DNA of 64,000 bases from an uncultured Nitrososphaerota archaeon (GTDB lineage Archaea > Thermoproteota > Nitrososphaeria > Nitrososphaerales > Nitrosopumilaceae): NCBI GenBank assembly GCA_963824385.1, contig CAWGPD010000001.1, positions 160,001-224,000 on the forward strand. The letters are read 5' to 3'. Each line of letters begins with the position of its first letter. The first letter of the stretch is position 1. Made by a program: the position numbers. This document shows positions 30,001 to 33,000 of this stretch, one piece after another.

Positions 30001-33000
30001 ATTCAAGGTGTCAAGCATGAATTTGAAAGGTGTTTAGACATGGCATATGCCATCAATATTAGAGGATTTGTCATAATACTAGATTAGTAGAGAAATATTA
30101 GAACCCAGAATGATTAGGAATAGCTTTATTTTTTTGAACATTATGTGTAAAAAATTCAGTCCCAAGAATCAAATTGAAAAATAAAATCAATAAAAAAATG
30201 TCGAATCAAACACTAATGGAACTTGTAAAAATAGCCGACAAGATAACTGTTGACGAAATTAAGGGTAAAAAAGTTACATTGAAGATAAGCTGGTTTGATG
30301 TAAAAGGAGCAAGAAAAACAAAAAAGTTTTTGCTCAATGAAAAAGACAATATTGAATTTTAGATAAGATTCAGTATTTTACATTTCATTACATCCCAACT
30401 CTATTTTTATACAATTTCAGACACAGTATATCCATTAATGAAAATCAAGGTATAGATTTAACAGATCTGGAGCATAATTTACAGTGTCAAAAAATATGAT
30501 TGTGTACGAATAATTATGACTTTAGTATTGTATGCAAAAAAGCCGCATATGTTTAGCAAGTTATTTGTACTATACACTAGAGATTACGAATTCATGGACG
30601 ATGATGACGATGAGGAGTAACAATATCGAGTCAGATTTTTGAATCAATGTCAGTTATTATCCACAGTGTGTCTGGATTATTTCTAAAATATTAAATGGGA
30701 TTTTCCCAAGATCAAGTTGCCTCTCAGAAGATACGAAAAGTACATTCTCGTTTATTGGAAAACTCATCAGTATTACTTTTCCTCTGTATGAAAGTGAGAA
30801 CTCAACTCTACCAAATTCTTCGTCAAACTCATGACGCATTCTCACCCTAAGTGAGAGTTCCATGAACAGCATTTCGTCTTTTTTGGCATCTTCGAGAGAT
30901 TTGAGACCTTGTCTCATTCCACCCGCAACAAGTTTGCCCTTACCGTTGATTATCCTAGCAGACCGAATCATTTCATCCAATTCAAAAACTTTCTTGCATA
31001 TTACATCAAAATTAGACTTGGATTCATCATCAGACATCACCGTAATGAATCCATTCTGGCAAATTAACTTTGGTTTCACCTCAAACATAATTCAGATACT
31101 TTTTTGCAATCCATAGACTGAAAGAGCAAAGTTTATGCATTACAACCAAGTATATCATACACGAATTACAAGGCATTATTTGACAAGGTGATGGGAATTG
31201 ATCCCAAAATTCGATTTGCCACAATATTTGACATGAGTGGGAAGGTTTTGTTCAGTGCTCACCGAGAAGGAGTGGAGAACCTGCTTTCATCAGAAGAGAG
31301 TCAGAAATCATTACAGCTTGCAATCAACGCATGGAAGTCTAGAAATGAAGTTTCAGATAAGATAGGAAAGGGAAAATATGCTCTGGTAGAATATGAAAAA
31401 TTAAAACGAATTACAATGCCTTTGGATTCAGAGCACATACTCTACATTACAACGGATGTTGAAGCAGATCATGCTCCAATAATTTACAGAGCATTGAGAT
31501 TGAAAAATGACGCACTACATTCCCCTGAAGGAATGCCCTAGAATAATCAAATTAAAATACTTCTCATACCAATACTAATTAGAAATGCCAATCGATCTAG
31601 TGACAGTGTTGAGTCATATCATAGCATTATGCACTGGTGGAACTATTCACCCATAATCAAAAATTAGACTATATTTATTAAAAAAATTCAGTGTGCGCGG
31701 ACGAGTAGATTTTTCACATTATTGTAACAAATTACACGCTATTGTAGTAGATGATCTAAATAGTGTCATGTACACAATTCTATTGAATTGGATACAATAC
31801 CGTCAAGAGAAAAAATAAAGATCGGAATCAGTGTAGCCATAGTTCAAAAACAGGACCAAAGGTCTGGCAAATTAACTGAGGGAGTAGTGAAACGAATTCT
31901 TACCTCAAGCAGCTTTCATCCTCATGGAATCAAAGTAGAACTAGAAAGTGGGAAGATAGGCAGAGTACAGAAAATATCTTGAATTTCAGTAGGATGAATT
32001 ATTGCTTTTTCCTTTTAGGTAGAAACAGAATCATCGTTCCTAGAATAATCAAGATACCAACTAGCACGGTATACATCAATGCCAGCGGCAATGACCTGAC
32101 ATAATCAGTCTCCTGGTTAGGAATTAGAAAATTAGAGCCTGTAGAAAGTTGCCATATAAGAAAAAAAGAGCCAATTAATGCAATCATATCAATAATCAGA
32201 ATTTTTCTAAATGGCTTCATGAAATCACTACCAAAGTACTAACGTTAAACAATTTCTAGAAATTCACGATGATTTCTTTATGTTTTTCTTTTCTTTGGCT
32301 GGTTGCCTTGCTGTTTTCTTTTAGGTCGTTTAGAGTTATCATACTCTTTTGCCCTATTTTCAGTATAGTTAATCTGAAGCATAACATGTCGAATTTTTTT
32401 TCTTTTTTGTACATCTGGAAAATGAAGTAACATGAATTCATCTAGTTCTTCAACGCCCCGTTCTTCTAGTATCTCTAATCCAATTCTTCCCGCTTCACGC
32501 GAGTTGTCCAATCCACACTTGGGACATGTTGCACCTCGTAGAATTTTTGATCTGCATCTAGAATCAATACAGCGCATCATGGAGTAAATTCTGTAAACGT
32601 TCTATAAAAACAACTGGAATTTTTCAAAAGATATGAATTGTTGAAATTTACAAAACAGAAAACATCAAAAGTGCCAATTCATCACAAGAATTCAATTGAA
32701 TAAAGAAGAATGTCTAGAATGCATGTCCAAAAATACCGGTGAGTATATGGACCCAATTGAAAAAAGCGACGGCATGCACTATTATTTTCTGTGCGAAGAT
32801 TGTAAGCACGAGTGGGAAATAATAAGAAAATAATTCTAAATAGAAATTGCTAAATCACCTATTCTAACTTTGAACAATAATGGGTTTTGAAGGAATAGAC
32901 AATCAGATTGAGCGTTATACAAAGCAGATTAACGAAATCACTGAAAAACTCAAAGATCCTAATCTTAGATATACTGCAAAAAAGAAACTAGAATCGGAAT

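Follow-up and report, generated by a model that had tools for sequence, protein, structure and literature searches.

The 64,000-nt stretch of archaeal DNA analysed here (the window) carries two divergent genes, g00275 and g00276, whose products share a predicted Roadblock/LC7 fold and belong to a distant branch of the Roadblock/LC7 superfamily; the two have diverged and come from different deep clades of it. In the archaeon's own taxonomic family the branch has expanded to 2–35 stand-alone copies per genome. Its members, including g00275 and g00276, most likely serve as small regulatory or adaptor modules which form dimers and do not have Ras-type GTPases as their targets, and a conserved core member is genetically linked to phaE and phaC, the genes for the PHA synthase. 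Membership of the family, the predicted fold, the remote homology, the copy numbers, the lack of small GTPases in the genomes searched, the gene linkage and the fusions are observed here, whereas dimerisation, the partner of each copy and an influence on transcription or PHA synthesis are inferred. We consider the chances that this reading is correct as a whole to be evenly balanced. Much of the world's nitrification is carried out by ammonia-oxidising archaea, about whose signalling little is understood. If one branch of the Roadblock proteins does without a small GTPase altogether, the known uses of an ancient fold become wider, and the linkage of its core member to phaE and phaC gives a concrete experimental entry point.

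The gene pair and its fold

The genome-wide survey's note had placed two divergent genes of the DUF6659 family in this region, and both open reading frames exist as described: g00275 at 30657..31088 on the minus strand (143 aa) and g00276 at 31188..31541 on the plus strand (117 aa), with a shared divergent intergenic region, read in sequence, of 99 nt (31089..31187). The orthologues of g00275, at 90% identity in genome G003 and at 67–74% elsewhere, begin at the position of Met18; judged from them, translation probably starts at the ATG at 31037, giving a protein of 126 aa and a spacer of 150 nt. The divergent order is kept in G003, and the pair is convergent in genus g32. The adjoining genes include no HTH gene and none that is informative. 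Only one RNA run was retrieved, the peat metatranscriptome X1 (share 0.06); in it, one identical 155-nt contig lies inside g00275 (30790–30944) and the remaining stretch has no cover, which is evidence for neither transcription nor habitat.

The note's claim that these proteins belong to DUF6659 or match it weakly holds for the pair in both its parts. The Pfam model (PF20364) recognises g00275 well above its 27-bit cut-off (64.8 bits, E 1.1e-17), and g00276 matches it weakly (18.1 bits, E 0.0032) and is a family member by an iterated own-genome profile (E 5e-32) and by its fold. In the tree g00275 falls into a clade of the core group (100/99) that is sister to a phaE-linked clade (support 94/89), and it is probably a lineage-specific duplicate out of the core clade. 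The second deep clade is represented by g00276, which lacks helix a1 in both the alignment and the AlphaFold2 model and has a conserved C-terminal tail, LKxDALHxPEGMP in the alignment.

The Roadblock/LC7 fold reported earlier for g00275 was reproduced with its AlphaFold2 and Foldseek figures, and g00276 folds likewise. The model of g00275 (pLDDT 88.7, pTM 0.80) has the topology a-b-b-a-b-b-b-a and gives 100 matches at E<=0.001 in the PDB, the best being MglB 6hjm (E 6.5e-7, TM 0.66/0.73), followed by 3kye, 1j3w, 7yh1 and Ragulator, with 3t12 also matched. The model of g00276 (pLDDT 87.3, topology b-b-a-b-b-b-a) gives 118 matches at the same threshold, the best being 3kye (E 4.5e-7). The best matches of both predicted models are all MglB, Roadblock or Ragulator structures.

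At the sequence level this relationship is much fainter. As stated before, a sequence profile finds nothing relevant in the PDB, its six matches (E 1.5–1.8) all being herpesvirus gB. The Pfam model Robl_LC7 (PF03259) matches neither gene at E<=1, and its best six-frame match genome-wide has E 0.4, within the paralogue at C3:128067-128447. An hhalign comparison of 21 paralogues with 25 Robl_LC7 proteins of the phylum gave 87.6% and E 3.5e-6 over 111 columns spanning the domain. The family HMM scored only 16.7 and 11.8 bits against those 25 proteins, and the reverse profile, built from the Robl_LC7 proteins, matched no family member in the genome, so that the link to Robl_LC7 rests on hhalign together with the fold. 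We regard the profile–profile link as moderate, not overwhelming. Canonical Robl_LC7 occurs in 0 of 20 genomes of the own taxonomic family, compared with 19 of 151 in a sample of the phylum.

The two proteins may pair with each other. Of 12 loci, 4 have genes like g00275 and g00276 side by side; these 4 belong to two genera and show two orientations. A complex prediction for g00275 and g00276, run on alignments made for this analysis, scored 0.39, in the weak band, against 0.01 for the best control, with partner pLDDT of at least 68 and contact agreement of at least 93%. Among 157 solved complexes, 116 attain the same mark as this pair, and so do 2 of 215 mismatched pairs; in the range up to 0.60 the passing cases were just 18 of the 157 solved complexes and both mismatches. 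Since Roadblock dimers are already solved, likeness to them may drive the predicted score.

Copy number, spread and linkage to PHA synthase genes

The nine copies counted by the genome-wide survey's note are an undercount. Iterating an own profile to convergence on the genome's 4,466 ORFs with a length of 60 aa or more yields 23 copies, 21 of them full-length, and no further ORF matched it even at E<=10; with the Pfam model, a six-frame search marks 17 places at E<=1, of which 7 exceed the cut-off. By a crude ORF count of about 2,190 genes, the family makes up about 1% of the genome. Two of the additional members lie in the window. One, at 36315..36692 on the plus strand, encodes 125 aa (own profile E 1.2e-35, Pfam six-frame E 0.027). 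The other is a 69-aa fragment at 63478..63687 on the minus strand that covers the C-terminal half only (own profile E 1.8e-18) and has a full-length relative, at 64% identity, 1.1 kb from a g00275-like gene in genome G065.

Every one of the 60 genomes sampled from the archaeon's taxonomic family (f1) has DUF6659 members (2–35 copies); so do 7 of 7 genomes of each of two other families, f4 and f7 (2–11 copies), and 6 of 8 genomes of the remaining sampled families of the order (0–4 copies). Genes of this kind rarely adjoin each other: another member is found within 1 kb for 2 of the 23 genes here and for 2 of the 60 genes sampled in five other genera, which rules out immediate pairing as a general rule. 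Looser clustering within 10 kb involves 13 of the 23 genes here, against 5.7 expected, and 21 of the 60, against about 8. A full-text literature search found no paper for DUF6659.

The linkage of a core family member to phaE is new here. In f1 a family gene is divergent from phaE in at least 35 of the 49 PhaE-bearing genomes (17 genera; 10 of the 49 were left unjudged), and in all 35 cases the arrangement is divergent, with 102–560 nt between the matches. A best family match of about E 1e-33 or better is found in 44 of 45 genomes with PhaE and in 0 of 12 without it. Each of the seven f4 genomes has a member no more than 3 kb from the PhaE match and on the other strand, six of them at 1.16–1.21 kb, and in the single f4 locus annotated (G015) the family gene stands directly past phaC, convergent. 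This gene falls outside the f1 phaE-linked group in the tree, with weak support, and the f1 and f4 linkages may therefore be independent. As far as the retrieved descriptions go, the literature search surfaced no paper described as reporting a linkage of a Roadblock-family gene to phaE.

In the genus of the present archaeon the phaE link is broken in all genomes considered (0/4). At the archaeon's own pha locus a 148-aa ORF that matches no family occupies the site divergent from phaE, and the locus already holds AbrB-like and helical small genes as candidates for PhaR and PhaP; DUF6659 proteins show no sequence likeness to AbrB-type PhaR or helical phasins. A conserved place at phaE/phaC such as PhaR or PhaP would have is held by the core member in other genera and not by g00275, g00276 or the own genus. 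According to the accessible part of one source (PMC11082331), PHA is a possible content of one type of storage granule in N. maritimus, whose proteome includes both PhaE and PhaC. A more far-reaching proposal is that in ammonia-oxidising archaea the core DUF6659 protein serves, independently of any GTPase, as a Roadblock platform controlling the PHA synthase or PHA granules, and that the duplicates, including g00275 and g00276, form a homo- and heterodimeric adaptor network through which the state of storage or redox would be connected with small transcription factors, kinases and STAND sensors. In this full form we find the proposal possible but doubtful.

Possible partners of the family and rival explanations

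Searches brought up no Ras/Arf/Rag small GTPase in the archaeon's own genome or in five complete relatives. The survey's note had found no such GTPase but had allowed that one could hide among unannotated genes. Family-model searches over six frames of this 86% complete genome gave no match for Ras at E<=1 and none for Gtr1_RagA, and three sub-threshold matches for Arf in large or broken frames, none in small ORFs. A Walker-A scan of the genome's ORFs returned 98 matches; the absence was judged by the family models and not by a full Pfam scan of these ORFs. Nor did a small GTPase turn up in five complete f1 genomes, where Ras or Arf models match only ORFs of 369–374, 443–448 and about 595 aa. 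The 128 neighbours of the 23 family genes include no GTPase.

Other members have been taken up into signalling proteins, apparently as input or partner domains; these are winged-helix (wHTH) regulators, a histidine kinase, a PP2C phosphatase, MEDS and STAND NTPases. P0152 joins the domain to HisKA-HATPase, and P0151 joins it to a GAF-PP2C (SpoIIE) phosphatase; five STAND NACHT proteins carry two family domains each at the C-terminus, and one protein combines the domain with MEDS. Two independent fusions with wHTH domains are found, with HTH_45 in P0118 and with a MarR-like domain in L105 of G223. The fusion proteins checked are all singletons at 90% identity except for one cluster of two. No fusion to REC was seen in a limited sample of 17 long representatives. 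A single-sequence word-based search, which is weak for long proteins, found no longer relatives of g00275, and a search with an alignment found one, P0151. The open frames at the matches in f4 and f7 show no REC fusion either, being at most 167 aa in f4 and at most 166 aa in f7 except for one 248-aa frame, which is a wHTH fusion. Three long frames considered as fusion candidates (G061, 523 aa; G004, 217 aa; G029, 231 aa) proved to be separate genes or artefacts of upstream starts. Histidine-kinase genes are commoner than expected within 3–5 kb of family genes. Direct operon linkage to them is at chance level (1/17 and 1/57 within 1 kb), and genome G021 has eight family genes and no kinase match.

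The survey's note had proposed that the family members are dimeric signal adaptors which bind and control small wHTH transcription factors. The wHTH neighbours of the four genes that it named are confirmed by neighbour annotation, and the adjacency to HTH_45 genes holds up here and in the genus: of the nine HTH_45 genes here, four have a family gene no more than 1 kb away (0.3 expected; 3 of 5000 random placements reach this count), and in seven genomes of the genus a family gene is found within 2 kb of 12 of the 81 HTH_45 genes, in two conserved configurations. The two wHTH fusions speak for the same role, as does member L066 with its lysine-rich, histone-H1-like tail. However, the adjacency does not extend to five other genera, where none of the 28 HTH_45 genes comes within 3 kb of one of the 60 family genes, and neither g00275 nor g00276 has an HTH gene as a neighbour. 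A regulator that controls the adjoining family gene would explain the conserved divergent HTH pair equally well; within the genus the HTH_45 orthologues are 85–90% identical, but the adjoining family gene just 51–68%. Moreover, the same domain is also fused to signalling modules that do not bind DNA (HisKA-HATPase, GAF-SpoIIE, MEDS and STAND NTPases), and the most conserved neighbour by far is phaE/phaC rather than any regulator. The proposal is supported in part, and as a description of the members in general, control of transcription factors is rather unlikely.

The fusions could also be taken to mean that the domain is a small-molecule sensor comparable to GAF or PAS, within the profilin-like fold class, each paralogue responding to another metabolite. 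It stands in the input position in histidine kinase P0152, in GAF-PP2C protein P0151 and in the wHTH fusions; redox or stress enzymes are frequent in the neighbourhood (AhpC, glyoxalase, multicopper oxidase, monooxygenases), and a cysteine of helix a1 is invariant among 20 sequences of the core subfamily. That cysteine is not family-wide, however, and a comparison of 137 diverse members shows so much as moderate conservation at only a few polar positions (R42 in 83/136, D89 in 92/137, R102 in 104/137). To our knowledge, no ligand-binding Roadblock domain has been described, and we hold a sensor role to be improbable.

Least probable of all, in our view, is the regulation of NTPases other than Ras-type GTPases, be they of STAND, KaiC/MEDS or translation type. 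The five STAND NACHT proteins and the MEDS fusion are in its favour, but in STAND architecture the C-terminal position belongs to the sensor and not to an NTPase regulator, and it is the C-terminus that the family domains occupy. Among the 128 neighbours the only P-loop proteins are one ABC ATPase and two thymidylate kinases. Also in its favour is a precedent, regulation of NTPases having been proposed as the ancestral function of the superfamily (available text of PMC4316618, citing Koonin and Aravind 2000). We prefer the reading in which the family supplies dimer-forming regulatory or adaptor modules with various partners.

Comparison with known systems

The closest structural counterpart of g00275 is MglB of Myxococcus xanthus and Thermus thermophilus, which has a similar size and the same a-b-b-a-b-b-b-a fold and is the Roadblock-domain GAP of the Ras-like GTPase MglA. 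The sequence identity is only 10–14%. The cognate MglA or Ras-like GTPase of MglB-type proteins is usually encoded within four genes, whereas none is found here or in the five complete relatives; the present genome has 23 copies instead of one or two, and they do not match the Robl_LC7 model. Roadblock proteins uncoupled from MglA amount to 328 of 749 prokaryotic MglB homologues, none of which had been characterised by 2014 according to the available text of a survey (PMC4316618). Such orphans still match Robl_LC7, unlike the DUF6659 family, and that text describes neither an expansion this large nor a link to phaEC. MglC, a Roadblock protein without a coupled GTPase, is represented by 7ct3 among the Foldseek matches of g00276.

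The Roadblock protein of Streptomyces conservons (CvnB type) works with a histidine kinase, as stated in the same available text (PMC4316618), and the fusion to HisKA-HATPase in P0152 and the enrichment of kinase genes within 3–5 kb recall this arrangement. Conservons also include the GTPase CvnD, which has no counterpart in this genome, and direct adjacency to kinases is not enriched here. NitrOD3 is an output domain of about 120 aa in Nitrososphaera response regulators, confined to Thaumarchaeota and, by HHpred, 'related to the Roadblock/LC7' (3KYE_A, Pr 68.3, Table S5); such domains often stand alone, in several copies (Galperin et al. 2018, PMC5847659, in its accessible parts). In those parts it is described as NitrOD3-REC, with three members in one genus, whereas the limited sample of DUF6659 proteins contained no REC fusion; the two were compared by their descriptions.

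The Ragulator subunits LAMTOR2 and LAMTOR3 (p14/MP1) form a heterodimer of Roadblock paralogues, and the structures 5y3a, 1veu and 3cpt match both g00275 and g00276. Ragulator scaffolds Rag GTPases, and this genome has no Gtr1/RagA family. With two diverged paralogues encoded side by side, a heterodimer could, on weak support, also form here.

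DUF6659 as a remote Roadblock/LC7 branch

The DUF6659 family is larger in this genome than the nine copies counted in the genome-wide survey's note, a figure that proved to be a lower bound. The Pfam model matched 17 places in the six frames of the genome at E≤1, seven of them above the cut-off, and an HMM built from the paralogues and iterated over the 4,466 called ORFs of at least 60 aa converged on 23 members, with no further ORF even at E≤10. These comprise 21 full-length copies, which are 15–54% identical to g00275 in their alignment (A1), one contig-end fragment and one 69-aa fragment. 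The window (G000:C1:160001-224000) holds four of the 23: the adjoining genes g00275 and g00276, a member at 36315-36692 (+ strand) and the 69-aa fragment at 63478-63687 (− strand). With A1 as the profile, 12–23 copies were found in 12/12 genomes of the genus (12–20 copies in 10/10 genomes without the unpublished G011 and G012). The domain is present in all 60 sampled genomes of the Nitrosopumilaceae, covering 25 genera (2–35 copies), in 6/8 genomes from other families of the order (0–4 copies), in 7/7 genomes of family f4 (3–11 copies) and, as 2–8 weaker matches, in 7/7 of family f7. Outside the Nitrosopumilaceae, 20 of 130 genomes of the phylum sample gave a single weak match (E 5.8e-10 to 9.6e-4), and two of these 20 also have Robl_LC7. 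A library-wide profile search returned 1,699 cluster representatives at E≤0.001, of which 765 reached E≤1e-10. Across 137 diverse members G51, G93, R102, P111 and D89 are conserved together with hydrophobic core residues, and a cysteine in helix a1 is invariant in the core subfamily only. A full-text literature search found no paper that names DUF6659.

The AlphaFold2 model of g00275, based on A1, has the order a-b-b-a-b-b-b-a (pLDDT 88.7, pTM 0.80; N-terminus of low confidence) and gave 100 Foldseek hits in the PDB at E≤0.001. The best is MglB 6hjm (E 6.5e-7, TM 0.66/0.73, 13% identity), followed by the Streptomyces Roadblock/LC7 domain 3kye, T. thermophilus MglB 1j3w, the Asgard Roadblock 7yh1 and Ragulator subunits. 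For g00276, modelled on its own subfamily alignment, the order is b-b-a-b-b-b-a (pLDDT 87.3, pTM 0.79), with 118 hits at E≤0.001 and 3kye at the top (E 4.5e-7). The sequence profile found nothing relevant in the PDB, the Pfam Robl_LC7 model did not match the family, and HMM-to-sequence cross-matches between the two were weak. Alignment of A1 by hhalign to 25 canonical Robl_LC7 proteins from genomes of the same phylum gave a probability of 87.6% and an E of 3.5e-6 over 111 columns across the domain. We conclude that the family belongs to the Roadblock/LC7 superfamily as a remote branch, lying outside the Pfam Robl_LC7 family.

Ras and Gtr1_RagA had no match at E≤1 in this genome, which is 86% complete, and Arf had three sub-threshold matches only, to a broken frame of 62 aa and ORFs of 435 and 382 aa. 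Five complete genomes from five other genera contained no Ras or Arf match of small-GTPase size; the matching ORFs there were of 369–374, 443–448 and ~595 aa. Canonical Robl_LC7 was found in 0/20 genomes of the Nitrosopumilaceae vs 19/151 in the phylum sample. The 128 neighbours of the 23 family genes include no P-loop protein other than an ABC ATPase and two thymidylate kinases. The survey's observation is real, and both the Roadblock fold and the absence of a GTPase partner that it claimed are supported.

The g00275/g00276 pair

The genes g00275 (30657-31088, − strand, ORF of 143 aa) and g00276 (31188-31541, + strand, 117 aa) are divergent and separated by 99 nt. The first matches DUF6659 well above the Pfam cut-off of 27 bits (64.8 bits, E 1.1e-17), and the second falls below it (18.1 bits, E 0.0032). 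Since its orthologues begin at the position of Met18, g00275 probably starts at the ATG at 31037, which would give a protein of 126 aa. The N-terminal helix of other members is missing from g00276 and its orthologues, which have a conserved C-terminal tail in common. Maximum-likelihood analysis of 46 members recovered two deep clades (support 95/92). One contains the g00275 clade (100/99), whose sister group (94/89) is made up of six phaE-linked genes (100/97); the other contains g00276.

Genes resembling g00275 and g00276 stand side by side in 4 of 12 loci. In G003 the two are divergent (90% and 96% identity); in G065 and G044, both of genus g32, they are convergent (74/71% and 70/69%); and in G008 they form part of a cluster of four genes. 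As this adjacency survives a change of orientation and the partners come from two deep clades, it suggests that the two products may form a Ragulator-type heterodimer. The predicted complex was rated as 'weak support', scoring 0.39 (runs 0.36–0.45; best control 0.01) against a benchmark whose mark was reached by 116/157 solved complexes and 2/215 mismatched pairs, with only 18 of the 157 and both mismatches passing in the band up to 0.60. The partners had a pLDDT of at least 68, and contact agreement was at least 93%; custom-made alignments served as input, and the score may be driven by Roadblock dimers of known structure.

Just 3' of g00276 lies a gene for a DUF2196 protein of 64 aa (31788-31982, + strand, E 3.5e-30), an arrangement shared by G003 (L047:592-786) and not seen next to the g32 pairs. 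About 2 kb from the pair, a gene at 33545-34096 (+ strand) encodes a response regulator of 183 aa in which an N-terminal ribbon-helix-helix (RHH_1, E 4e-8) precedes the receiver domain (E 1e-18).

Transcription factors, kinases and domain fusions

The survey's note had proposed that the family serves as adaptors for transcription factors. Of the nine HTH_45 genes over the Pfam cut-off in this genome, four have a family gene at most 1 kb away, where random placement expects 0.3 and reached four in 3 of 5000 placements. Across seven further genomes of the genus 12/81 HTH_45 genes (over the cut-off, nine sub-threshold rows having been dropped) are within 2 kb. These come in two conserved arrangements: in one, HTH_45 comes after the C2:203871 orthologue in the same direction; in the other, the C4:456301 orthologue diverges from an HTH_45 gene and a gene for a predicted 176-aa membrane protein. 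The adjacency is genus-specific, since across five complete genomes, each from another genus, none of the 28 HTH_45 genes over the cut-off had one of the 60 family genes within 3 kb (1/41 at E≤0.001), and a divergent regulator gene may simply control its neighbour. Two independent events fused the domain to a winged helix, in P0118 (HTH_45 at 5-81, family domain at 114-222) and in a 239-aa protein of G223 (MarR-like, E 6e-4). An adaptor role is plausible for a few paralogues; for the family as a whole, or for g00275/g00276, it is not established. The HTH_45 gene and the gene for the predicted membrane protein that follows it (L034:12857-13757, G000:C4:456856-457756) are kept in four relatives at 85–90% and 60–65% identity, and the family gene beside them at only 51–68%, which indicates that it evolves faster than they do.

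Of the 17 histidine-kinase genes here (one split gene, with two rows, being counted once), seven are no more than 3 kb from a family gene vs 1.3 expected. In six other complete genomes 14/57 are within 5 kb vs 4.3 expected. Because random placement ignores genomic islands, this proximity shows co-location, not coupling. The kinases are not direct neighbours, with counts within 1 kb of 1/17 here and 1/57 in the six genomes, and G021 has eight family genes with no kinase match. One kinase (L024:7528-8281, G000:C1:277527-278280) spans two adjoining ORFs of 187 and 61 aa that divide its HATPase_c domain, and is probably a frameshifted or broken gene.

In fusions, the family domain has the position of an input or partner-binding domain. 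It is joined to HisKA and HATPase_c (P0108/P0152), to MEDS (P0080), to GAF and SpoIIE (P0151) and to preceding pentapeptide repeats (P0032, P0060, P0077), occurs in tandem in P0004, and in one member carries a lysine-rich tail. Five STAND NTPases of 1,072–1,285 aa (P0005, P0012, P0013, P0125, P0136) all have pentapeptide repeats and then two family domains at the C-terminus; three begin with TIR, trypsin or DUF4062, and four match NACHT, NPHP3_N or AAA. This architecture is typical of defence-type NLR-like proteins. At 90% identity all ten fusions checked were singletons, bar one cluster of two.

PHA synthase linkage and known relatives

Of the leads on function, the strongest is the linkage, conserved and new for the family, between its core member and phaEC. 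In other genera a PhaE-like gene is divergently adjacent to g00275 orthologues. PhaE occurs in 49 genomes of a 61-genome sample of the Nitrosopumilaceae, and among the matches listed a family gene stands head to head with phaE, on the opposite strand, in at least 35, representing 17 genera (all 35 divergent, 102–560 nt separating the phaE and family HMM hits). Of the remainder, ten have family matches beyond those listed and four, all of the own genus and including this genome, lack the pair in full member lists. In 7/7 genomes of family f4, from seven genera, the PhaE hit has a DUF6659 gene no more than 3 kb away on the other strand (six at 1.16–1.21 kb, one at 2.9 kb); in the one annotated locus, of G015, it is directly 3' of phaC and convergent. 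PhaE and the top-scoring family member occur together: of 45 PhaE genomes outside the own genus, 44 have a best E of about 1e-33 or better, vs 0/12 without PhaE, and three of the contrasts are within a genus. As the sampled kin are not independent, the Mann-Whitney figure for this is an overestimate. With weak tree support, the phaC-linked gene of f4 does not group with the phaE-linked genes of the Nitrosopumilaceae. The phaE-linked gene has one in-frame stop (TAA or TGA) in three genomes (G045:C2:49036-49395, G066:C1:32103-32462, G054:C1:1492898-1493182); these may be pseudogenes or sequencing errors.

The pha locus of this genome (L113, G000:C1:257000-261600) contains a 139-aa gene with an AbrB/MazE-like C-terminus, a helical 138-aa gene, phaC, phaE, a 148-aa ORF and a hydrolase gene. 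The 148-aa ORF, which has no family, occupies the divergent site where other genera have the DUF6659 gene. The 139-aa and 138-aa genes next to phaC are reminiscent of haloarchaeal phaR-phaP.

VTT/DedA and glyoxalase genes are recurrent neighbours of family genes. AhpC lies upstream of the orthologue of the core gene C3:106587 here and in G029, and in G015 (L046, G015:C8:46093-49431) AhpC, a family gene and VTT/DedA share one strand, with 16 nt between the first two, in what looks like an operon. A 299-aa gene convergent to the core family gene (L028:3695-4594, G000:C3:105694-106593) has weak HTH_11 and B12-binding_2 matches, keeps its position in G025, G028, G065 and G029 at 62–81% identity, and may encode a B12-type regulator.

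For N. maritimus, one type of storage granule is reported as possibly containing polyhydroxyalkanoate, and the proteome of this species included PhaE and PhaC (PMC11082331). Of 749 MglB homologues, 328 were described as uncoupled from MglA, none of them characterised in that account (Wuichet and Sogaard-Andersen 2014, PMC4316618). NitrOD3, a Nitrososphaera domain of ~120 aa fused to REC, was related to Roadblock/LC7 by HHpred (Pr 68.3), and such domains also stand alone in several copies (Galperin et al. 2018, PMC5847659). Compared by their descriptions only, NitrOD3 and the DUF6659 family have in common that both are Roadblock-related.
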